A stretch of DNA of 54,588 bases from Gammaproteobacteria bacterium (GCA_050116575.1 JASFOJ010000014.1:1-54588); one strand, 5' to 3'. Numbered from the stretch's first letter, positions 29,131 through 40,740 are shown. Notes: generated by a model not told the origin, from the letters alone. Translations and numbers: made by a program.

Positions 29131-29571
29131 TTACTCTTGACCGGGGTGTACTTTACGACGTTGCGCCTTACGTTCACTGTTCCGACGTTTTTGTTCCAGG
29201 CGGTCATTATTCTCCGCAAATGAACGTTTTCGTTTCAGCCGAGGCTTGCGGCGCTCTGCGGCTTTACAAATCAACTCGCACAGACGCTCGATCACTTCAC
29301 GCTTATTGCGTGCCTGTGACCGATGACGTCGTGCGGTAATAACAAGTTGGTAGTCGTTGTTGACCCGTGATCCGCCCAACTGAATCAAACGCTGTTGCAC
29401 GGTATACGGCAATGAGGGAGATTGAATAATATCAAAACGCAATTGGACAGCCGTCTGGTTCTTATTGACGTGCTGGCCACCCGGGCCGGATGCGGTCAGG
29501 GCCTTAAAGTTCAGCTCCTCATCGTCGATCACGATGGAATCGGTAACGTGTACGGGGTTTCCCATGTTCAT
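29131..29571 (-). CDS. arfB: Peptidyl-tRNA hydrolase ArfB (alternative ribosome rescue factor B)
   Basis: A GGQ motif (SGPGGQHVNKNQTAVQLRFDI) and a basic C-terminal tail; ~140-aa size typical of ArfB/YaeJ. Confidence 0.8.
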   Translation of the reverse strand: MNMGNPVHVTDSIVIDDEELNFKALTASGPGGQHVNKNQTAVQLRFDIIQSPSLPYTVQQRLIQLGGSRVNNDYQLVITARRHRSQARNKREVIERLCELICKAAERRKPRLKRKRSFAENNDRLEQKRRNSERKAQRRKVHPGQE

Positions 29572-29661: not shown

Positions 29662-30858
29662 TTAACCTTTGACACACACGATTTGTTTCAACGTGTGCAC
29701 CACGTCCACCAGATCGCTCTGGTTTTCCATGACCACATCGATATCCTTATAAGCGGCCGGTATTTCATCCACCACGGCGGTGTCCTTGCGGCATTCAATC
29801 CCTTGCGTTTGGGATTCCATGTCTTCGGCACTAAATTGCTTTCTCGCTTTGGTTCGGCTCATACGGCGGCCGGCGCCATGAGAGCAGGAACAAAACGACT
29901 GGGCATTGCCTTTACCGCGGACGATATAGGATTTCGCACCCATGCTACCGGGAATTATCCCTAACTCACCCTCTCCCGCTCGGATCGCCCCTTTACGGGT
30001 CACGAACACTTGGGCGTCAAAGTGATTCTCAATCGCCACGTAGTTGTGATGACAATTGATCGCTTCCTTGGTCACGCCAAAGTGGTTCAATTCCTTGCGC
30101 AGCATCTCAAAAATGAAGTGCATCATTTCCCGGCGGTTAACCATGGCATAGTCCTGCGCCCAGTGCACTGCATCAACGTAATCATCAAAATTCTGGGCGC
30201 CTTCCTCGAAATAGGCCAGGTCTTTGTCCGGCAAGTTCACGATATGCTGGCGCATATCTTTTTTCGCCAGATCGATAAAGTAACGACCGATGGCGTTCCC
30301 AATCCCACGGCTACCGGAATGCAACATCACCCACACATCCTGATTTTCGTCCAGACACAACTCGATGAAGTGGTTACCACCACCCAATGTCGCGATCTGG
30401 CGCACCCAGGTTTGATAGGGCTTCTTTTGTAAATTGGCAATCTTGGGGTGTTTGTCCAAAATCTTATCCAATCCCGGCGCCAGGCCACGAATAGTGGAAT
30501 TACGCGCCCTGTCGGTTTTATGCATGTCAAACCCCACGGGTATGGTTTTCTCGATCAGCGATCGAATACGGCGCAAGTTGTCCGGCAACTGCTCTGCCTT
30601 GATGGACAGGCGCACCGCGTTCATGCCGCAACCAATATCCACGCCCACCGCCGCAGGGATAACTACCCCTTTGGTAGGAATTACCGAGCCCACCGTGGCC
30701 CCAATGCCGGCATGCACGTCGGGCATCGCCGCGATATGGCTATGAATAAATGGCAATTGAGCAATGTTCGTCAATTGCTGCATGGCCTGGTGTTCCACAT
30801 CATCCGTATAAATTTTTACCGGCACCTTGCCTTTAGTAATGTTTCGTTTTATGGGCAT
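29662..30858 (-). CDS. rtcB: RNA-splicing ligase RtcB
   Basis: GNHFIELC...SCSHGAGR and metal-binding His/Cys motifs of RtcB; 398 aa. Confidence 0.93.
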   Translation of the reverse strand: MPIKRNITKGKVPVKIYTDDVEHQAMQQLTNIAQLPFIHSHIAAMPDVHAGIGATVGSVIPTKGVVIPAAVGVDIGCGMNAVRLSIKAEQLPDNLRRIRSLIEKTIPVGFDMHKTDRARNSTIRGLAPGLDKILDKHPKIANLQKKPYQTWVRQIATLGGGNHFIELCLDENQDVWVMLHSGSRGIGNAIGRYFIDLAKKDMRQHIVNLPDKDLAYFEEGAQNFDDYVDAVHWAQDYAMVNRREMMHFIFEMLRKELNHFGVTKEAINCHHNYVAIENHFDAQVFVTRKGAIRAGEGELGIIPGSMGAKSYIVRGKGNAQSFCSCSHGAGRRMSRTKARKQFSAEDMESQTQGIECRKDTAVVDEIPAAYKDIDVVMENQSDLVDVVHTLKQIVCVKG

Positions 30859-32301: not shown

Positions 32302-33633
32302 TTAGTTAATTTTCACCAAACCATTCATCAGTCCTTCAAGGCCACCGAAAACAGACAAGTTACCGACTTTTTCAGTGACTTTTTCCAACGTTTCCAGCTC
32401 TTTCAAGCGTAGCGCCGTTGGGTTGTCTTCCATGACTTTGGCGGTGTTCAACATTGAACGTGTGGCCGCCGTTTCTTCGCGACGTCGAATGGAGTTCGCT
32501 TGTGCGGCTTTTTCAGCTTCGACCACTTGGGCCAGAATGGTTTTCATATCACCTGGCAGGATAATATCTTTCACACCTACATCAGCGATAGAAATACCGA
32601 CATCCGCGGTTTTGGCCTTGATGTGCGCCAACACGCTATCATCGATGACCGTTTTATCTTCAAGCAACGCATCCAACGTACGTGTACCCACGGCCGCGCG
32701 CAAACCAAATTGCAGTTCACGGCGCACGTAGTCGTTGACGTCAGCCAATTTTGACGTTGCCGCCATCACATCCGTGATGCGGTAGCTGCAAGACAAGTTG
32801 ATACGCAGGTTTACCTTGTCTTTGGTCAAAATTTCCTGACCGGCGACGTCCATGTCTTGTACACGAGTATCGAACAATTCAATACGGATATTACGATTGA
32901 ACTTCCAGTACGCGTGCAGACCTGGCGTCAATGTACCTGCCGTTGCACCATCCACGTACAGAACACCTACGTTGTATTCTGGCACATGACGGAAGTACAC
33001 GGCGTGGATCATGGAGTCACGCAACAGACCACGGTCGGCGAACACCAGTTCGGCTGCCAGCCGTGATTCGATGGCGAAGTCATCCGCGATATCGATTACT
33101 TTGGCCTCAACGTCCACCAGTCCTTTCCAGAACAGCGTGCGCGTTGATGGACCCAGCACGTAGGCCAGGCGGCGATTTTTGAAGATCAATGCCACTTGCG
33201 TTGCGTTCAATTCCACGATATCGAAGCGTTTTGCCACTTCGCCCGCAAATTGTTTGATCAACAGGTCGGTCAAGCGGTGCTCGAACTCCGGTACGCTCAG
33301 GTCAAAAACCTCCACGTCGATTTTACGCAGTGGATCCAGGAAGTGGTACGTACCCGCATCCAGGAAGCGTACAAAATCCCCGTTTTTAAACAGCAATCCG
33401 CGTTCATTTTTTTTCACTATAAATTTACGTACTACCAACATTGTCTTACTCCCATTGTCCCTGTTACCACTCACTGGTTGTTTCACGTTCACCGCCTTGT
33501 CAGCGCCTGAAATGCCCTTATTTGTTAAACTTGAGTTCACACGCACAGAAGCCGGTTTGCCTCGATGCCGCTGTGAAATAAGGGCGGCCGTTTCTCCGAT
33601 TGTGCGTTGTGTGTTCATCGTAGAGTCCTTCAC
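32302..33633 (-). CDS. SPFH/band-7 (stomatin/HflKC-like) domain protein
   Basis: SPFH core and a C-terminal coiled coil (EAEKAAQANSIRRREE...); the N-terminal start is uncertain. Confidence 0.75.
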   Translation of the reverse strand: MKDSTMNTQRTIGETAALISQRHRGKPASVRVNSSLTNKGISGADKAVNVKQPVSGNRDNGSKTMLVVRKFIVKKNERGLLFKNGDFVRFLDAGTYHFLDPLRKIDVEVFDLSVPEFEHRLTDLLIKQFAGEVAKRFDIVELNATQVALIFKNRRLAYVLGPSTRTLFWKGLVDVEAKVIDIADDFAIESRLAAELVFADRGLLRDSMIHAVYFRHVPEYNVGVLYVDGATAGTLTPGLHAYWKFNRNIRIELFDTRVQDMDVAGQEILTKDKVNLRINLSCSYRITDVMAATSKLADVNDYVRRELQFGLRAAVGTRTLDALLEDKTVIDDSVLAHIKAKTADVGISIADVGVKDIILPGDMKTILAQVVEAEKAAQANSIRRREETAATRSMLNTAKVMEDNPTALRLKELETLEKVTEKVGNLSVFGGLEGLMNGLVKIN

Positions 33634-34002
33634 GTTTTATATATCATACAATCTAGTTAGTGGTGTCACTTCCACACCATTGCAGCGGGTGATAATTTGC
33701 GAATCACCGGGTTTGATCGGAACGTGACGCCGCAGTATCCCGTAACCCGAATAACTTCAAGCTACTGTCAACGTTAGCGAAACGTTGCGAAAAAACCGGG
33801 TAAATCCGTACCCGTTATCACACAGGCCCAATGGTGCTGTGTGAGCAACAGCGGTTCGGCATCAACTGCCTGCCTATTTCGCTACTGTCACACCGGAAGT
33901 GACATCCGGTGGTTTGGTTTCCTCTCGTACTCCCAAGGTGTCTTTACCTAAGACCAAAGAGGGGACTCGAACCCCAGACCGTTAAAGGGTCTTTACCATA
34001 GT

Positions 34003-34075
34003 TGCTTAGACAGGATTTGAACCTGCTACCTCACGATTTTCCGTCGTGTGCTCTACCCAATGAGCTACAAAGCAC
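34003..34075 (-). pseudogene. tRNA-Phe-like gene (anticodon GAA but G33, acceptor-stem mismatch, no CCA)
   Basis: Cloverleaf derivable by eye: D-arm GCTCATTGGGTAGAGC, anticodon arm CACGA-CGGAAAA-TCGTG, T-arm GCAGGTTCAAATCCTGT. The defects suggest decay. Confidence 0.35.
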
Positions 34076-34342
34076 TGGTGTGAATAGCCTTCTCCATAAC
34101 GGTACACGTCAATCAATTTTCAGATCCAACGCGCCAGCCAGGTATACAGAACCATCGCCGCTGTTACAAGTAAGACGCATACTCACTCTGTAAAGGGTTT
34201 GTGTTTTTCTTTACACAATCCACTTAATTTCTTTAATGCTCCCTCCTTTTCAACCGAGGGTTGGGGGGGGTTATTACATTAATCCTAGAATCAAATCCCC
34301 CTTCATTCTCCATTTGTAAAACGGGAAGTACCTCACCATTAA

Positions 34343-34906
34343 TCAAATCCAACGACAGTGTTTCGTAAATCCGGCTTTCAAAAATTCCATTTGATCGGCC
34401 AGGATTCTGCCGCTGTTGCGCAATGCCAGATATTCGGCATGGTTCGGTGTATGCGGCAACGCCAACAACTGCAAATTGCATTCTTCCGGCAAACGATCGC
34501 CTTTGTAATGGTTGCATCGTTTGCAGGCTGCCACGACGTTGGTCCAGGTGTTTTTACCGTTCCGTGACCGTGGAATCACGTGATCACGGGTCAGCTGCTG
34601 AGCGTTAAACTCACGACCACAATACATACACAGATGTCGGTCACGTCGAAACAATTCCTGGTTGGTCAACGGTGGTACTGAGCGAACACGAATGGTTTTA
34701 TCCACGCCTTTCACTGCAACGATCGAATGGATATCCACAAACGAGCGTTGGCTGGTCACACGGTTGACACCACCGTGGAACCGAAAACGATGTTCGCCCG
34801 CCGTCCAACCGATACGCTCTTTGGCATACAACATCACGGCGTCTTGCCAATGCATCCAGCCCAACGGCTGACCCGCCATATCCAAACGCAAAATCAATGG
34901 AACCAC
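34343..34906 (-). CDS. HNH endonuclease (start GTG preceded by GAGGAG; ORF-track extension to 35050 runs into tRNA-Leu and is rejected)
   Basis: C-terminal CMYCGREFNAQQLTRDHVIPRSRNGKNTWTNVVAACKRCNHYKG HNH motif. Confidence 0.75.
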   Translation of the reverse strand: MVPLILRLDMAGQPLGWMHWQDAVMLYAKERIGWTAGEHRFRFHGGVNRVTSQRSFVDIHSIVAVKGVDKTIRVRSVPPLTNQELFRRDRHLCMYCGREFNAQQLTRDHVIPRSRNGKNTWTNVVAACKRCNHYKGDRLPEECNLQLLALPHTPNHAEYLALRNSGRILADQMEFLKAGFTKHCRWI

Positions 34907-34964
34907 GCTTTTCTCCTCATACTCTATCGATACCTTTAACAAGTTGGGAAGTACCATTATTAAT

Positions 34965-35050
34965 TGGTGTGCCCGGTCAGATTCGAACTGACATTGCCAT
35001 TTGGGCATAGGGTTTGAGCCTATTGTGTCGGCCAATTGCACCACGGGCAC
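34965..35050 (-). tRNA. tRNA-Leu(CAA)
   Basis: Acceptor GTGCCCG/CGGGCAC, anticodon arm ATAGG-CTCAAAC-CCTAT, long variable arm, T-arm with TTCGAAT, encoded CCA. Confidence 0.85.
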
Positions 35051-35248
35051 ATTTTGCGAATTGGCGGAAGAGATAGGGCGAGCAACGGGTTAAGGAGTCG
35101 CGAGCGCCAAGTCATGGATGACTTGGCTGGACTTTCGCGCGAAGCATGGATAGCGAAGCGCGAAAGCGAACCTATAAATCCCTACCAGGGATCCACTGGT
35201 TAGCAACCAGCTGCCTTGCCATTCAGCCACTCTTCCGACTTATCGATT

Positions 35249-35336
35249 TGGTGCGTGCGGAGGGATTGGAACCCTCATGCTCGAACGGAGCGGCGGATTT
35301 TAAATCCGCTGTGTTTGGCGGCTCCACCACGCACGC
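35249..35336 (-). tRNA. tRNA-Leu(UAA), D-loop lacks GG
   Basis: Acceptor GCGTGCG/CGCACGC, anticodon arm GCGGA-TTTAAAA-TCCGC, long variable arm, CCA end. Confidence 0.8.
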
Positions 35337-35356
35337 AGCACCTACATTTATGTATT

Positions 35357-35432
35357 TGGTTGTGACAATTGGAGTCGAACCAATATCTTCAAGGGTATGA
35401 GCCTTGCGCTTTGCCAGTTAAGCTATGTCACA
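35357..35432 (-). tRNA. tRNA-Met or Ile2 (anticodon CAU)
   Basis: Canonical cloverleaf; anticodon arm CAAGG-CTCATAC-CCTTG. Confidence 0.85.
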
Positions 35433-35445
35433 ACTTCTACAACAT

Positions 35446-35521
35446 TGGCACCCTTGGTAGGATTTAAACCCACATCTGTCGAGGTAGAAGCTCGATGCTT
35501 TGTTCATTAAGCTACAAGGGT
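35446..35521 (-). tRNA. tRNA-Arg(UCU)
   Basis: Anticodon arm TCGAG-CTTCTAC-CTCGA; canonical D and T arms. Confidence 0.85.
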
Positions 35522-35539
35522 GTAGTTAATCAATGTATT

Positions 35540-35615
35540 TGGTGCCCCCGGCAGGATTTTCGCCTGCAACCTACCGCTTAAAAGGCGATTGCTCTTGATG
35601 TTGAGCTACGAAGGC
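35540..35615 (-). tRNA. tRNA-Lys(UUU) with atypical T-loop CGAAAAT
   Basis: Anticodon arm ATCGC-CTTTTAA-GCGGT; acceptor with two G-U pairs; the T-loop lacks TTC. Confidence 0.75.
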
Positions 35616-35642
35616 AATATTTCTATTTTTAAAAGAATAAAT

Positions 35643-35717
35643 TGGAGGTGCGGGCCGGAATTGCACCGACGAAAAGTTGGTTTGCAACCAACTGCATTGC
35701 TACTCTGCCACCGCACC
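35643..35717 (-). tRNA. tRNA-Cys(GCA)
   Basis: Anticodon arm GTTGG-TTGCAAA-CCAAC, discriminator U, CCA. Confidence 0.8.
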
Positions 35718-35718
35718 G

Positions 35719-35865
35719 TGGCACCTCGAGCAGGAGTCGACAATTTTGTATGGAGCAAAATTGGTCGAACTTTAGTTCACCCGTAGGGCGCAAGCCATGG
35801 ACGGCTTGCGACAGCCCACACCCACTGTTTTGGAGGCAGTTGTTCTACCGTTAAACTATCGAGGC
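35719..35865 (-). ncRNA. Elongated tRNA-Trp(CCA)-like gene carrying the ~80-nt three-hairpin module (copy A) between 5' T-stem and T-loop
   Basis: The 5' half GCCTCGA-TA-GTTT-AACGGTA-GAAC-A-ACTGC-CTCCAAA-ACAGT closely parallels E. coli tRNA-Trp. It is followed by GTGGG, the module, GTCGACT-CCTGC, TCGAGGT-G-CCA. Confidence 0.55.
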
Positions 35866-35877
35866 ACAATCTTTTAT

Positions 35878-35952
35878 TGGTAGGGGATCCTGGACTTGAA
35901 CCAGAACTCTGAGCTTCAAAGACTCGTGTGCTGCCGATTACACCAATCCCCT
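35878..35952 (-). tRNA. tRNA-Gln(UUG)
   Basis: Anticodon loop CTTTGAA; acceptor AGGGGAT/ATCCCCT; CCA. Confidence 0.75.
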
Positions 35953-35967
35953 ATCGGTTATTAAACT

Positions 35968-36043
35968 TGGCACGCCCACCAGGACTTGAACCTGGATCTC
36001 TCACATTCGTAGTGTGAGGCTCTCGCCATTGAGCTATAGGCGT
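35968..36043 (-). tRNA. tRNA-Arg(ACG)
   Basis: Anticodon arm TCACA-CTACGAA-TGTGA; canonical. Confidence 0.85.
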
Positions 36044-36045
36044 TT

Positions 36046-36120
36046 TGGTTGACGTGGTCAGAATCGAACTGACAACCTTCTGTTTGTAAGACAGACGCTC
36101 AACCATTGAGCTACACGCCA
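36046..36120 (-). tRNA. tRNA-Val(UAC)
   Basis: Anticodon arm TCTGT-CTTACAA-ACAGA; canonical. Confidence 0.85.
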
Positions 36121-36138
36121 TTTGATTTGTATAAAACG

Positions 36139-36232
36139 TGGCGGAAGGTGGAGGGCACGATCCCCAAACGGTGTTTCACGTTCCACTGGTTTTCAAGACC
36201 AGGCCAACGCCCATCGCGTCAGGTTACCTTCC
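36139..36232 (-). tRNA. tRNA-Ser(UGA)-like, class II, degenerate T-arm
   Basis: Acceptor GGAAGGT/ACCTTCC, anticodon arm CTGGT-CTTGAAA-ACCAG, long variable arm; the T-loop is not canonical. Confidence 0.55.
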
Positions 36233-36301
36233 TTACCTGTTTTACATACGTTCGCAATATAGAATTGTTTTGTGATGTTGTTTGTTGCAGTCTTTTAGAT
36301 T

Positions 36302-36358
36302 ACGATTGACGACGCACTTTCACCAAAGCTGCTAGTTGTTTTTTGGATAATTTCATTG
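36302..36358 (-). CDS. Candidate 18-aa ORF MKLSKKQLAALVKVRRQS with strong SD (GAGGAGGG) inside the tRNA array
   Basis: RBS and ATG spacing seen in the sequence; no other support. Confidence 0.2.
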
Positions 36359-36375
36359 CATCGCCCTCCTCTATT

Positions 36376-36451
36376 TGGCACGCCCGGAAGGATTCAAACC
36401 TTCGACCCCTTGGTTCGAAGCCAAGTACTCTGTTCACTGAGCTACGGACGT
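36376..36451 (-). tRNA. tRNA-Arg(UCG)
   Basis: Anticodon arm CTTGG-CTTCGAA-CCAAG; canonical arms. Confidence 0.75.
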
Positions 36452-36465
36452 ATGTGGCATTAAAT

Positions 36466-36542
36466 TGGTAGCGCGGGTGAGATTCGAACTCACAACATCC
36501 AGTTTCTAAGACTGGCGCGTCTGCCCATTGCGCCACCGCGCC
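36466..36542 (-). tRNA. Class I tRNA with anticodon UAG (Leu codon CUA) but short variable arm
   Basis: Anticodon arm CCAGT-CTTAGAA-ACTGG, 5-nt variable loop, A73; bacterial tRNA-Leu is normally class II. Confidence 0.6.
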
Positions 36543-36561
36543 GCTATACGACAAATAAGTA

Positions 36562-36639
36562 TGGGGCGACCGACGAGGTTCGAACTCGTATCCTCTCGGT
36601 TCACAGCCGAGGACTTTAGCCGGTTAAGCTACGGCCGCC
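36562..36639 (-). tRNA. tRNA-His(GUG) with encoded G-1
   Basis: Extra 5' G pairing with C73; anticodon arm CTCGG-CTGTGAA-CCGAG. Confidence 0.85.
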
Positions 36640-36661
36640 ACTAATTAACTTACAAATAATT

Positions 36662-36754
36662 TGGAGCGGGTAATGAGACTTGCACTCATAACCTCAACGT
36701 TGGCAACGTTACGCTCTTCTCATTGCACCCTCCGGGCATAAAAGCTATACCCGC
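36662..36754 (-). tRNA. tRNA-Gly(GCC) with ~18-nt D-loop expansion (UUAUGCCCGGAGGGUGCAAU)
   Basis: Acceptor GCGGGTA/TACCCGC with U73; anticodon arm TAACG-TTGCCAA-CGTTG. Closely parallels E. coli tRNA-Gly(GCC) apart from the insertion and the TGCAAGT T-loop. Confidence 0.6.
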
Positions 36755-36761
36755 AGTAAAT

Positions 36762-36856
36762 TGGTCTGGACGACAGGCCGCTCTTGAGCATCCCTGCTCT
36801 GGCGGCACTTGTGCATCCAAGCACATCGGATTCGAACACGATCCATACAGTTTTGT
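36762..36856 (-). pseudogene. tRNA-Pro 3'-end relic (duplicate of the last ~20 nt of tRNA-Pro, T-arm missing)
   Basis: aattggtctggacgacagg nearly repeats aatttggtctgggcgacagg at 36858; the upstream part lacks T-arm and anticodon features. Confidence 0.4.
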
Positions 36857-36860
36857 AATT

Positions 36861-36939
36861 TGGTCTGGGCGACAGGATTTGAACCTATGGCCTCTCGGTT
36901 CCAAACCGAGTGCTCTGCACAGACTGAGCTACACCCAGA
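36861..36939 (-). tRNA. tRNA-Pro(UGG)
   Basis: Anticodon arm CTCGG-TTTGGAA-CCGAG; canonical. Confidence 0.85.
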
Positions 36940-37049
36940 AAGATCACCAACGATGCACGTTGGCGGCACAGCTGTTGTCCTGCAGTTGTGCTCCCACACC
37001 TTTTACGGCGGTGGTATACCGGCGACAGGGAGTGTCGCGCTCCTGCTAT

Positions 37050-37197
37050 TGGTTGCCCTATCAGATTCGACAATTCTGACGGGATCAGAATTGGCCGCGC
37101 TTTAGCGCGCCCGGCAGGGTACGGGCCATGGATGGCCCGTAACAGCTGATCACCGCACGATTATCAGTCGTGTGCTCTGCCACTGAGCTAAAGGGCA
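37050..37197 (-). ncRNA. Elongated tRNA-Ile(GAU)-like gene carrying module copy C
   Basis: The 5' half TGCCCTT-TA-GCTC-AGTGGCA-GAGC-A-CACGA-CTGATAA-TCGTG is canonical. T-stem ATCAG then the module then TTGTCGAAT-CTGAT then AGGGCA-A-CCA. Confidence 0.5.
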
Positions 37198-37365
37198 TTG
37201 GCGAACCGGACGGGGTTATTCCGCACATCCATGTGCTCCACCCTTTGGGCCGTCGCTTCGCGACGTTCAAATTTGCTCCCGGCAAATTTGTCGAACCCGC
37301 AATGTCATCTCGACACCAGGTTGAAGGCCTGGCCGCTTTGTCCACTTTGCATACCGGTTCATCGT

Positions 37366-37442
37366 TGGCGACCATGACCGGCAATGATCCGGCATCTTCC
37401 ACCTTGACAGGGTGGCGCTTTCCCAAGTTAAGCTACATGGCC
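37366..37442 (-). tRNA. tRNA-Asp(GUC) with atypical T-loop
   Basis: Anticodon arm CCACC-CTGTCAA-GGTGG; acceptor GGCCATG/CATGGTC; T-loop ATCATTG. Confidence 0.7.
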
Positions 37443-37449
37443 TTTAAAT

Positions 37450-37521
37450 TGGTGGAGTGATTCGGAATCGAACCGAACCCGATCGCTTGCAAGGCGTTCA
37501 GTGCGACCCATCGCCCACCCC
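37450..37521 (-). ncRNA. Short tRNA-like gene (anticodon UGC-like) with mini D-arm (GCGA-TGG-TCGC)
   Basis: Acceptor GGGGTGG/TCACTCC with G-U pairs, T-arm TTCGG-TTCGATT-CCGAA, CCA; the D-loop is only 3 nt. Confidence 0.4.
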
Positions 37522-37543
37522 GTATGAAACAAGTGCAATTAGT

Positions 37544-37629
37544 TGGCTGAGAAGGTCGGACTCGAACCGACATTGAGTTCTCACTCACGGGTTAACAGCC
37601 CGCTGCATTACCTGGTCTGCCACTTCTCA
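37544..37629 (-). tRNA. Class II (long variable arm) tRNA with anticodon GUU (Asn codons)
   Basis: Acceptor TGAGAAG/CTTCTCA, D-stem GCA/TGC, anticodon arm GCGGG-CTGTTAA-CCCGT, 15-nt variable arm GAGTGAGAACTCAAT, T-arm GTCGG-TTCGAGT-CCGAC. Confidence 0.6.
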
Positions 37630-37637
37630 TTATCATT

Positions 37638-37714
37638 TGGTGCAGCGAAATGGATTCGAACCACTATCGCCCTGGGCTTCAACCAGGCGCTCTACCCATT
37701 GGAGCTATCGCTGC
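37638..37714 (-). tRNA. tRNA-Phe(GAA)
   Basis: Anticodon arm CCTGG-TTGAAGC-CCAGG; canonical D and T arms. Confidence 0.85.
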
Positions 37715-37720
37715 GAAATT

Positions 37721-37982
37721 TGGTGGAGCACGGAAGGCCGCTCTCGCAGATCCCTCGGCTATGGCTCCTGCTTCGCCCTACCTCCTGCATCCATGCAGTC
37801 GTGTGCTTCGCGGCACCTGTGCATCCATGCACAATGGAATCGACAATTTTGTCCGGAACAAAATTGGTCGAACTTTAGTTCGCCCGTAGGGCGCGAGCCA
37901 GGGATGGCTCGCGACAGCCTCTTGCCCGAAGGGCCTGGGCTACAACCAGGCCGTGGACCATCCACGCTTATTGACATGCTCC
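37721..37982 (-). ncRNA. Long tRNA-like RNA with Tyr-type anticodon arm (GUA), mini D-arm, module copy B and two GCATGGATGCA hairpins before a CCA end
   Basis: GGCCTGG-TTGTAGC-CCAGGCC anticodon arm, GTGGA-TGG-TCCAC mini D-arm, the module at 37840-37919, 3' CCGTGCTCCACCA; boundaries are uncertain. Confidence 0.4.
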
Positions 37983-37994
37983 AATACGCTTTTG

Positions 37995-38160
37995 TGGTTT
38001 ACTAAGGTCGGTTTCACCCCACCGACTCCCGAATCCGGTTTTTCAACCGTCGAACCGACTTTACTTACCCTTGCACACCCAGGCAGAAATGAATGGAGTA
38101 ACAACGGGTTTCGGTTACAACCTGGTGCTGCCACACCACTTAGTAAACCCAAAAACATAC
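37995..38160 (-). ncRNA. Structured RNA closed by 11-bp terminal helix (GGTTTACTAAG / CTTAGTAAACC) with CCA after the helix; tRNA-like acceptor
   Basis: Inverted repeat between 37996-38007 and 38136-38147, seen directly; the internal fold is unresolved. Confidence 0.3.
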
Positions 38161-38175
38161 GCACTAAAAAACAAT

Positions 38176-38269
38176 TGGTGCCGAAAGTAGGACTTGCACC
38201 CACAACCGTCTGCTTACAAGGCAGCTGCTCTGCTAAATTGCACCCAAAGGGCATAAAAGCTATTTCGGC
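38176..38269 (-). tRNA. tRNA-Thr(UGU)-like with the same D-loop expansion as the Gly(GCC) gene
   Basis: Acceptor GCCGAAA/TTTCGGC, D-loop TTATGCCCTTTGGGTGCAATTTAGCA, anticodon arm GCTGC-CTTGTAA-GCAGA, T-loop TGCAAGT. Confidence 0.55.
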
Positions 38270-38271
38270 AC

Positions 38272-38366
38272 TGGTTGTCCCGGCAGGACTTGAACCTACA
38301 ACTCGCGCTAATCTGGCGCTTTCCCAAGGTATAAGCTTGGCGTTTTACCAATTAAACTACGGGACA
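38272..38366 (-). tRNA. Class II tRNA with anticodon UAU (Ile AUA codon)
   Basis: Acceptor TGTCCCG/CGGGACA, D-arm GTTT-AATTGGTA-AAAC, anticodon arm CCAAG-CTTATAC-CTTGG, ~24-nt variable arm with GCGC stem. Confidence 0.55.
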
Positions 38367-38385
38367 CCTAATCATGTGCAGCCTC

Positions 38386-38559
38386 TTATGCCAGTTCTCT
38401 GGCCAACGCAAACGCTGCATCAAAGTTTCGATGTATTCGGTTCTGTATTGCGCCGTTACGTAAAAACCATCGCACGTTAGGCTGGCTGAAGGATTTCCTA
38501 GCCGCCGGCAGATTCATGGTTTTAATGAGGCGCTCATAGCGTTGCGCTTTCGTGTACAT
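38386..38559 (-). CDS. Candidate 57-aa ORF (MYTKAQRYERLIKTMNLPAARKSF...) with strong SD GGAGGTGA
   Basis: RBS and ATG at the edge of the tRNA array; no homology recognised. Confidence 0.3.
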   Translation of the reverse strand: MYTKAQRYERLIKTMNLPAARKSFSQPNVRWFLRNGAIQNRIHRNFDAAFALARELA

Positions 38560-38606
38560 AACACTCACCTCCTTTTCAATACGACCTGTTCCACATCAGC
38601 AAAAAT

Positions 38607-38755
38607 TGGTGCGGGCAGACAGAGTCGACAATTCTGACAGGATCAGAAATGGTCGCACTTTAGCGCGCCCGATAGGGTGCGGGCCATGGATGGCCCGCAA
38701 CAACTGTCATCTTCTGCTTGGAAAGCAGGTGTTCTACCATTGGACTATGCGCGCA
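38607..38755 (-). ncRNA. Elongated tRNA-Gly(UCC)-like gene carrying module copy D
   Basis: 5' TGCGCGC-ATA-GTCC-AATGGTA-GAAC-A-CCTGC-TTTCCAA-GCAGA, then the module, then TTGTCGACTCTGTC-TGCCCGC-A-CCA. Confidence 0.5.
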
Positions 38756-40612: not shown

Positions 40613-40740
40613 TAATTGGGCAAGTAGCTCAGCGGTAGAGCACCGGGCTTATTTACTCTTCGCTTCTCGCACCAAGAGTTCCTAATTGATCTAACCCGGA
40701 GGTCGCAGGTTCGACTCCTGCCTTCCCTGCCCGTTTTTCG
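40613..40740 (+). ncRNA. tRNA-like gene interrupted by ~46-nt insertion in the anticodon loop; no encoded CCA
   Basis: GGGCAAG-TA-GCTC-AGCGGTA-GAGC-A-CCGGG-CTT[insert with ACTCTT/AAGAGT hairpin]CTAA-CCCGG-AGGTC-GCAGG-TTCGACT-CCTGC-CTTCCCT; the 3' end is followed by a GCCCG-TTTTT-CGGGGC hairpin. Confidence 0.45.

Follow-up and report, generated by a model that had tools for sequence, protein, structure and literature searches.

Shape-variant leucine, asparagine and isoleucine tRNAs, probably cognate isoacceptors, in a long tRNA array of a gammaproteobacterial chromosome

Long tRNA arrays (L-arrays) of bacteria are horizontally transferred and supernumerary and have genes for an HNH homing endonuclease and RtcB nearby; they are proposed to function in translational stress, under which the array of Anabaena is induced (PMC8421152). 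We analysed an array of this kind in a 54,588-nt stretch of gammaproteobacterial DNA (GCA_050116575.1 JASFOJ010000014.1:1-54588), hereafter the window, which is bacterial chromosome with genes for FeoB, phosphoglycerate mutase, flotillin, an M48 peptidase and other housekeeping functions. Like the L-arrays portrayed in that paper, it comprises dozens of same-strand supernumerary tRNA genes, has a patchy spread and is linked to HNH and rtcB genes, but it differs in being gammaproteobacterial, in its linkage to rtcA, rtcB and an RF-1-domain gene, and in containing shape-variant and insert-bearing tRNAs; term searches of PMC8421152 returned no mention of variable arms. Three genes at positions 36466-38366, all on the minus strand, encode tRNAs in which shape and anticodon disagree:

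36466-36542, minus strand: tRNA-Leu(UAG) of class I shape, 77 nt; called by ARAGORN, 62.6 bits with the Rfam tRNA model
37544-37629, minus strand: tRNA-Asn(GUU) of class II shape, 86 nt; called by ARAGORN, 55.3 bits with the Rfam tRNA model, minimum free energy fold with five arms
37572-37586, minus strand: variable arm of tRNA-Asn(GUU), GAGU-GAGA-ACUC followed by AAU; 4 bp, GNRA-type tetraloop, three unpaired 3' nt
38272-38366, minus strand: tRNA-Ile(UAU) with a 24-nt variable region, 95 nt; called by ARAGORN, 59.9 bits with the Rfam tRNA model
38304-38320, minus strand: second hairpin of tRNA-Ile(UAU), (A)GCGC-CAGAUUA-GCGC(G); 4-bp stem with a flanking A.G mismatch

The nev-tRNAs reported by Hamashima et al. 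in 2012 are said to be specific to nematodes and to decode an alternative code for Leu. Like the long-arm window genes they are of class II shape, in their case combined with Ile(UAU) or Gly anticodons (PMC3333845), and tRNA-Ile(UAU) is set apart from them, by description, in that its D arm is of class I and its extra hairpin, conserved in sequence, has a 7-nt loop. Allo-tRNAs, known from bacteria and phages, share with the long-arm window genes the long arm and an anticodon other than those of Ser, Leu and Tyr; UAU is the commonest anticodon among them, and they include "five-stem-junction" forms. Their defining traits are an acceptor/T-stem configuration of 8/4 or 9/3, a D arm like that of tRNA-Sec and an identity of Ser or Ala (PMC5389517). 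On a comparison by description only, we rejected membership of the window genes in this group, as their stems are 7/5 and the Ile gene has A73 and a canonical D arm, not the Sec-like one with long stem and tetraloop. A phage subfamily carrying the same second hairpin as tRNA-Ile(UAU) does have a short D arm with a tetraloop, and the allo-tRNA(UAU) group, likened by description, may overlap with it. All three variant kinds occur in phage tRNA clusters on contigs of IMG/VR, two of which (L099 and L116) hold the three designs together, whereas the window genes lie in a bacterial chromosome, in a gene order that matches gammaproteobacterial and not phage arrays. Cultured Aeromonas, Gordonia, Streptomyces and Sinorhizobium phages annotate variant genes as tRNA-Asn, tRNA-Leu and tRNA-Ile, and a BLAST search with the whole array against cultured phages gave generic tRNA matches only. 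In the literature that we searched, neither long-arm tRNAs for Ile or Asn nor short-arm ones for Leu were described from phages, nor was the second hairpin with its GAU loop, a weak absence given the many subscription papers beyond reach.

Genes were called with ARAGORN and cross-checked with the Rfam tRNA covariance model (gathering score 29 bits), and arm geometry was measured by position-based parsing; an alignment of nine class II Asn tRNAs with MAFFT and RNAalifold was set aside in favour of parsing, as D and variable arms were put out of register in it and the extra arm did not emerge. Both tools gave the same cloverleafs that an initial annotation of this DNA had folded by hand, i.e. 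long-arm tRNAs with anticodons GUU and UAU and a short-arm tRNA with anticodon UAG. A shift of the loop register, which that annotation had named as its possible undoing, is not seen, as the Rfam alignment independently places the anticodon loops at CUGUUAA and CUUAUAC, both with U33 and A37, and shows variable-region insertions of 12 and 20 nt, respectively. The accompanying premise that bacterial long arms are limited to Leu, Ser, Tyr and Sec tRNAs applies to housekeeping tRNAs and fails for the tRNAs that we sampled from phages and arrays. Each of the three genes encodes CCA and has a 7-bp acceptor and a 5-bp T stem with every pair formed in the ARAGORN folds, and each has relatives in other genomes with compensatory changes, so these are not chance cloverleaves. 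Judged from these sequence comparisons, the three genes probably encode working cognate isoacceptors of a horizontally acquired L-array, whose variant architecture circulates in phage and mobile arrays.

The tRNA-Leu(UAG) has the anticodon loop CUUAGAA, a 5-nt variable loop (AUGUU) and an acceptor end with G1.U72 and A73. Its D arm is of the Leu type (UG-GCG(C)-AAUGGGCAG-(A)CGC) and its core is that of tRNALeu (U8, A14, G18G19, 3-bp D stem with a 13.22 mismatch); lacking the long arm of bacterial tRNALeu, it is a shape variant and not a canonical member. Isotype profiles trained on phage tRNAs with the anticodon masked (80.6% leave-one-out accuracy) rank Leu first for the D arm (5.3 bits). A scan of IMG/VR with the Leu D-arm pattern gave at least 120 loci, and at least 165 loci with short-arm Leu relatives, mostly viral, were retrieved. 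The 77-nt relatives have the D arm UG-GCGC-AAYNGGNAG-ACGC, A73 and often G1.U72; A73 is present in 210 of 213 short-arm Leu tRNAs, and the G1.U72 wobble in 92 of the same 213. Among the IMG/VR matches listed, the short-arm design occurs with all six Leu anticodons, and cultured Gordonia, Streptomyces, Vibrio and Cronobacter phages annotate short-arm genes as tRNA-Leu.

Frequencies of the variant shapes were counted in loci retrieved for a different tRNA, with retrieval by sequence patterns and isotypes labelled by anticodon. About 45% of the Leu tRNAs in phage loci have a short arm (20/44 and 59/133), and the extra arm is kept in 91/91 Ser and 31/32 Tyr tRNAs, the pattern expected if the requirements of the cognate synthetases shape these tRNAs. 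For bacterial LeuRS, it is A73 and the tertiary core that count, not the extra arm (PMC2377443, PMC9976931); removal of the arm from Aquifex tRNALeu chiefly reduces LeuRS affinity (PMC2377443), and a recent review assigns low importance to the Leu extra arm and names arm size as the major Ser determinant (PMC9976931). Because A73 and the Leu-type D arm are present and LeuRS does not depend on the arm, tRNA-Leu(UAG) is best read as a Leu tRNA minus its arm and not as a foreign body with a Leu anticodon. The extra arm would have been lost, and LeuRS would still charge the tRNA via A73 and the Leu-type D arm and core. Animal mitochondrial tRNALeu, which is organellar and has a co-evolved LeuRS, is likewise without a long variable arm, whereas the window tRNALeu has kept the bacterial Leu-type D arm and A73.

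The tRNA-Asn(GUU) combines a 3-bp D stem and G13.A22 with its long arm and thus departs from the class I shape (4-5-nt variable loop, 4-bp D stem). Its acceptor carries U1-A72, G2-C71, A3-U70 and G73 and scores best as Asn (11.2 bits), the D-arm profile is Ser/Cys-like and the anticodon stem Tyr-like, which together make the tRNA a mosaic. We recovered nine distinct class II Asn sequences in ten retrieved loci, plus one in a cultured T4-like phage. Relatives are found in a gammaproteobacterial metagenome-assembled genome (MAG; L025) and in phage contigs (L083/L086, L084, L085, L099, L116, L150, L283), and the copy in Aeromonas phage AhMtk13a (83 nt) is annotated as tRNA-Asn(GTT); Aeromonas phage phiAS4 has a class II Asn tRNA as well. 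Their stem sequences differ and their geometry is common, with 3-4 bp, a mostly GNRA-type loop and usually three unpaired 3' nt. Class II forms make up about 6% (5/86) of the Asn tRNAs. In two syntenic gammaproteobacterial arrays (L011 and L012), the slot between Phe(GAA) and Ala(UGC) is filled by a tRNAAsn of ordinary shape, 75 nt long, whose T arm is almost the same.

The initial annotation had suggested that the long-arm tRNAs are charged by synthetases blind to the anticodon (SerRS or LeuRS) and so insert Ser or Leu at Asn and AUA codons, in the manner of allo-tRNAs or nev-tRNAs. We consider this quite improbable, though tRNA-Asn(GUU) offers it most of the E. coli Ser determinants (G73, G2-C71, A3-U70, C11-G24 and the long arm) along with G13.A22 and the Ser-like D-arm profile, and serine identity is independent of the anticodon (PMC9976931). 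Against Ser charging, 8/9 class II and 68/83 class I Asn tRNAs have U1-A72, a pair seen in 0/181 tRNAs for Ser, of which 167 have G1-C72 instead. Position 2-71 is C-G in 4/9 class II and 48/83 class I Asn tRNAs versus G-C in 172/181 Ser tRNAs, so the Ser acceptor set is not conserved in the class II Asn family; G73 is present in 9/9 class II Asn, 80/83 class I Asn and 135/181 Ser tRNAs. The class II Asn arms (13-16 nt, 3-4 bp) are smaller than most Ser arms (16-21 nt, 5-7 bp), and the window arm (15 nt, 4 bp) is at the short extreme of the tRNASer range. Moreover, tRNA-Asn(GUU) is the positional counterpart of a normal tRNAAsn and the one Asn gene in a set covering all 20 amino acids, and the same kind of tRNA occurs in lytic T4-like Aeromonas phages. 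We conclude that it is most plausibly an Asn tRNA on a class II-type core. A short GNRA-capped extra arm would have been gained on this core, with U1-A72, G73 and the anticodon kept, and AsnRS, or the AspRS/GatCAB route, would read the Asn acceptor end and the anticodon.

The tRNA-Ile(UAU) has U1-A72 and the E. coli-type Ile determinants A73, C4-G69 and U12-A23, and its D arm is of the canonical class I type (4-bp stem, 8-nt loop with GG); its variable region is not a class I loop but reads GAAA-GCGC-CAGAUUA-GCGC-GAGUU, with AGUU before the T stem (GAGUU if counted from the 4-bp stem). The second hairpin formed by this region has the dimensions of an anticodon arm, a linker of class I length and a loop reading GAU, the major Ile anticodon. 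Acceptor and T-arm profiles rank Ile first, and the gene is 84% identical to a copy in phage contig L099. A scan with the anticodon stem-loop gave ordinary Ile(UAU) genes of 74-75 nt plus ten of 94-96 nt in phage arrays, and loci retrieved with the Leu pattern held further long-arm copies; the long arm is present in 14/28 Ile(UAU) versus 0/23 Ile(GAU) genes. Sinorhizobium phage Phosso annotates a hairpin-bearing gene as tRNA-Ile(tat), and the hairpin-bearing copies of Aeromonas phage 1233 and Synechococcus phage S-SRM01 are unannotated.

Among 81 unique long-arm sequences, the second hairpin has a 7-nt loop in 71 and a best stem of 5 bp in 55 (4 bp in the window), and the linker to the T stem, counted from a 5-pair stem, is 4 nt in 25/77 and 5 nt in 52/77. 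Arms of Leu, Ser and Tyr tRNAs have 3-5-nt loops (a 7-nt loop in just 7/377) and 1-3 unpaired 3' nt. Fourteen hairpin variants share an invariant A-G-A-U at loop positions 33-36, and position 38 is A in 13 of them. The four inner pairs are 94.6% paired, three with compensatory changes, and the covariation score is 0.61 compared to 0.14 for shuffled alignments (0/500 as high) and at most 0.21 for slid controls. The same hairpin sits on at least two scaffolds, of which one has a canonical D arm (28 sequences) and the other a short one closed by a tetraloop (50 sequences). Of 119 new matches listed by a scan with a 15-nt version of the hairpin, UAU tRNA genes account for 108, of which ARAGORN called 96 while 12 were cut or missed; the remaining 11 fell by chance in coding sequence, and no match listed was in another tRNA. 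Long-arm Ile(UAU) tRNAs as a family have A73 (77/79) and A37 (79/79) and encode CCA; C4-G69 (21/79) and U12-A23 (23/79) are not general. The G1.U72 wobble was seen in 62 of the 79. When the hairpin was deleted in silico, ARAGORN found a tRNA in 29/81 sequences, 14 of them as Ile(GAU); leftover linkers, A33 and odd D arms defeat the predictor.

Recoding of AUA by this tRNA could draw on A73 and the extra arm, both features of the nev-tRNAIle(UAU), which is leucylated (PMC3333845), and on the frequency of UAU anticodons among allo-tRNAs (PMC5389517). The analogy to nev-tRNAs does not extend to a tRNALeu-derived body, as the window tRNA scores -10.2 bits with the Leu acceptor and -11.9 bits with the Leu D-arm profile. 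Across Leu, Ser and Tyr, its acceptor and D-arm scores range from about -6 to -19 bits (Leu/Ser acceptor -10 to -19; Leu/Ser/Tyr D arm about -10 to -13). The D arm is of class I, the extra hairpin is unlike Leu arms in its 7-nt loop and 4-5-nt 3' linker, and the 7/5 stems are not those of allo-tRNAs. The codon-usage anomaly that the initial annotation proposed to look for is not seen in 15 linked open reading frames (ORFs), where AUA accounts for 14% of Ile and CUA for 3% of Leu codons and Asn for 44 per 1000, all ordinary values. All three families retain the cognate identity nucleotides, and neither charging by LeuRS or SerRS nor a recoding of Asn and AUA codons is supported.

As a cognate isoacceptor, tRNA-Ile(UAU) would decode AUA, and its second hairpin would be a recognition handle specific to the UAU isoacceptor. 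The hairpin may have a role with IleRS or a modification enzyme, or in fidelity or protection. With the E. coli machinery, a UAU tRNA is charged inefficiently by IleRS and misreads AUG on the ribosome (PMC3575796); this would be a reason for an accessory element specific to UAU, and because typical bacterial IleRS charges UAU poorly, IleRS is the likeliest reader of the hairpin. A more specific, rather unlikely idea is that the tRNA has two tandem anticodon-arm-like hairpins, of which Y-U-UAU-A-N decodes AUA and C-A-GAU-U-A mimics the GAU anticodon, so that a host IleRS or another enzyme specific to tRNAIle accepts a UAU tRNA with which it would otherwise cope poorly; either hairpin might be able to stack on the D stem. 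If this were true, AUA decoding could be provided by phages and mobile arrays with no need of TilS or of an adapted IleRS. We know of no extra hairpin in the tRNAIle(UAU) of Mycoplasma mobile. That tRNA is like the window tRNA in reading AUA with an unmodified-type UAU anticodon instead of lysidine, but M. mobile has adapted its IleRS (Arg865) and ribosome (PMC3575796), whereas in the window it is the tRNA itself that has the extra GAU-loop hairpin. As a separate observation, an 18-nt stretch at 37413-37430 is 94% identical to one at 38314-38331 (UACCUUGGGAAAGCGCCA and UAACUUGGGAAAGCGCCA). It covers the D region in a tRNA-Asp and the 3' strand of the anticodon stem, the linker and the start of the second hairpin in tRNA-Ile(UAU), a resemblance that could be due to chance or be a trace of recombination.

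The three genes are part of an array that is a horizontally acquired L-array in a gammaproteobacterial chromosome. ARAGORN called 18 tRNA genes on the minus strand of 34001-38366, and the remaining array genes came from reading of the gaps and low-threshold Rfam matches. The array and its neighbours are:

34001-38754, minus strand: long tRNA gene array, about 29 tRNA or tRNA-like genes on a single strand, all 20 amino acids
34343-35050, minus strand: HNH endonuclease ORF inside the array; PHROG HNH families, best E = 1.5e-28; Pfam HNH
32302-33633, minus strand: SPFH/Band_7 protein between the array and the Rtc genes; Pfam PF01145
31140-32174, minus strand: RtcA, RNA 3'-phosphate cyclase; Pfam RTC and RTC_insert
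29662-30858, minus strand: RtcB RNA ligase; PHROG tRNA-splicing ligase, E = 7e-154; Pfam RtcB
29131-29571, minus strand: small RF-1-domain protein of peptidyl-tRNA hydrolase or ribosome-rescue type; Pfam PF00472

Downstream of the array, the SPFH, RtcA, RtcB and RF-1-domain proteins are joined by a PcfJ-like protein and a methyltransferase. An identical RtcB protein was found in metagenome assemblies only, and relatives with 70-78% identity were found in 80 gammaproteobacterial genomes (Chromatiales, Thiodiazotropha, Methylococcaceae and large sulfur bacteria). Besides the window, tRNA clusters are present at three of these 80 loci (L011, L012 and L025). L011 and L012 contain 25-gene arrays upstream of RtcB that are syntenic with the window array and share with it the order Tyr-Phe-Asn-Ala...Arg-Val-Arg-Gln-Trp-Cys-Arg...Leu-Leu. 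They have a class I Asn tRNA in the slot corresponding to that of tRNA-Asn(GUU), and all their Leu tRNAs are 77-79 nt long, with each of the Leu anticodons present (UAG, UAA, CAA) on the 77-nt short-arm design. Array-free RtcB loci (L042, L051, L054, L060, L071, L073) have one to three solitary tRNA genes 1.5-3 kb upstream, among them short-arm tRNA(UAG). At L060 and L071, a tRNA near RtcB has the anticodon UUA and would read the UAA stop codon.

The proximity of rtcA and rtcB, 1-5 kb from the array, also bears on a further alternative, in which the array tRNAs are decoys or sponges for tRNA-targeting toxins or anticodon nucleases, or substrates or signals of RtcA/RtcB, with the odd arms tuning this role. 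Short tRNA(UAG) relatives adjoin RtcB even where no array is present (L042, L051, L054, L071, L073), a sponge role has been proposed for L-array tRNAs (PMC8421152), and Mukai et al. suspected that allo-tRNA(UAU) is unused in translation (PMC5389517). We still regard such a role as unlikely, as identity nucleotides, CCA, U33/A37 loops and T loops are kept over hundreds of copies, none of which a pure decoy needs, 23/26 of the Anabaena L-array tRNAs are aminoacylated in vivo (PMC8421152), and phages without nearby Rtc genes carry the same kinds of tRNA.

Several other genes of the array bear insertions. On the minus strand, four genes, Trp(CCA), Tyr(GUA), Ile(GAU) and Gly(UCC), have an approximately 80-nt element of four hairpins in the T loop, with the 5' strand of the T stem on one side and GUCGAnU on the other:

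35733-35816, minus strand: four-hairpin element
37836-37919, minus strand: four-hairpin element
37062-37148, minus strand: four-hairpin element
38620-38706, minus strand: four-hairpin element
37210-37300: diverged, reverse-oriented copy of the element

The copies fall into two pairs of 89% identity, and from one pair to the other, 11 of 33 predicted base pairs show compensatory changes. The element had no Rfam match at E<=1 and was absent from 82 Rtc-related loci searched with its own covariance model; its DNA pattern was found in 0 viral contigs and 8 metagenome contigs. On the two contigs inspected (L380 and L376), an intact tRNA gene adjoins the element, and a second copy of the 3' end of that tRNA comes after it. 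It looks like a small mobile element that targets T-loop DNA, and the interrupted tRNA genes, with RtcA/RtcB adjacent, may be spliced or dead.

Further irregular genes are found in the array and its surroundings. Thr(UGU) (38177-38270) and Gly(GCC) (36662-36755), both on the minus strand, have a common D-loop insert (UUUUAUGCCC(nnn)GGGUGCAAU), an unusual T loop (UGCAAGU) and Rfam scores of just 22-26 bits. A second insert type (36770-36835 and 37730-37843, minus strand; GUGCwUGGAUGCAC...GCCGC...AGGGAU...GAGAGCGGCC) is shared by the Tyr gene and a fragment (36765-36860) that seemingly lacks its 5' half, and it separates the T arm from the 3' acceptor strand. A region on the plus strand (40617-40732) matches the Rfam tRNA model with 57 bits over 112 nt and is called by ARAGORN, with introns allowed, as tRNA-Arg(tct) with a 40-nt insertion in the anticodon loop and no encoded CCA. 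A tRNA-Sec-like gene (36143-36232, minus strand) falls short of the Rfam threshold (33 versus 47 bits); its anticodon stem is 6 bp long, its anticodon, UGA, is one for Ser, and it may be an allo-type or 8/4-type tRNASer. ARAGORN folds tRNA-Ala(UGC) (37450-37517, minus strand) as 68 nt with a truncated D arm and the anticodon at position 27, and it missed Lys(UUU) (35543-35615, minus strand; Rfam 55 bits, T loop GCGAAAAUCC). In the retrieved loci (L083-L369), some tRNAs for Thr(UGU), Lys, Met(CAU), Cys and Glu also have a short arm with a GNRA-type cap, a sporadic occurrence.

At least eight neighbouring genes bear an insert, be it within the D loop, within the T loop or behind the T arm, and the T-loop insert behaves like a small mobile element; on these grounds, the three variant genes might be taken for decaying pseudogenes whose long arms are debris of such insertions. 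This is very improbable: phage arrays that are unrelated have conserved the arms and show compensatory changes in them, all stems are intact (Rfam 55-63 bits) and no sequence is common to the arms and the mobile inserts. In the window, the covariance model of the insert matches its four founding copies and the one diverged, reverse-oriented copy only.

Several observations weigh against working cognate isoacceptors. The mode of retrieval and labelling biases the frequency counts. The acceptor profile of tRNA-Leu(UAG) is best as Met, and the summed scores are nearly tied (Met 4.1, Leu 3.5), so that the profiles say little about this gene. For tRNA-Asn(GUU), whole-body profiles are close (Tyr 11.2, Asn 9.8, Ser 7.8), and because its Ser determinants are combined with the Tyr features G34, U35 and a Tyr-like arm geometry, partial mischarging by SerRS or TyrRS may occur. 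At the family level, the bodies of long-arm Ile tRNAs are not clearly Ile by the profiles, a weak point. The array may be partly decaying, given the genes broken by insertions. Finally, allo-tRNA(UAU) tested as Ser tRNAs gave no suppression, and a non-translational role was suspected for them (PMC5389517).

The tRNA classes, fixed for bacteria by the textbook, vary in mobile tRNA sets. Nearly half of the sampled phage tRNALeu have lost the extra arm, and tRNAs for Asn and Ile(UAU), on occasion also those for Thr, Lys and Met, have acquired one. Recoding by the three variant tRNAs is unlikely. As to annotation, flags raised on shape versus anticodon would misreport such tRNAs as recoding, and several copies in cultured phages are unannotated. 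For biology, the variation bears on the compatibility of phage and stress-response arrays with host synthetases. The GAU-loop hairpin of tRNAIle(UAU) merits experimental follow-up; abundant, conserved in sequence and specific to one anticodon, it makes the charging and use of UAU tRNAs in bacteria a testable question.

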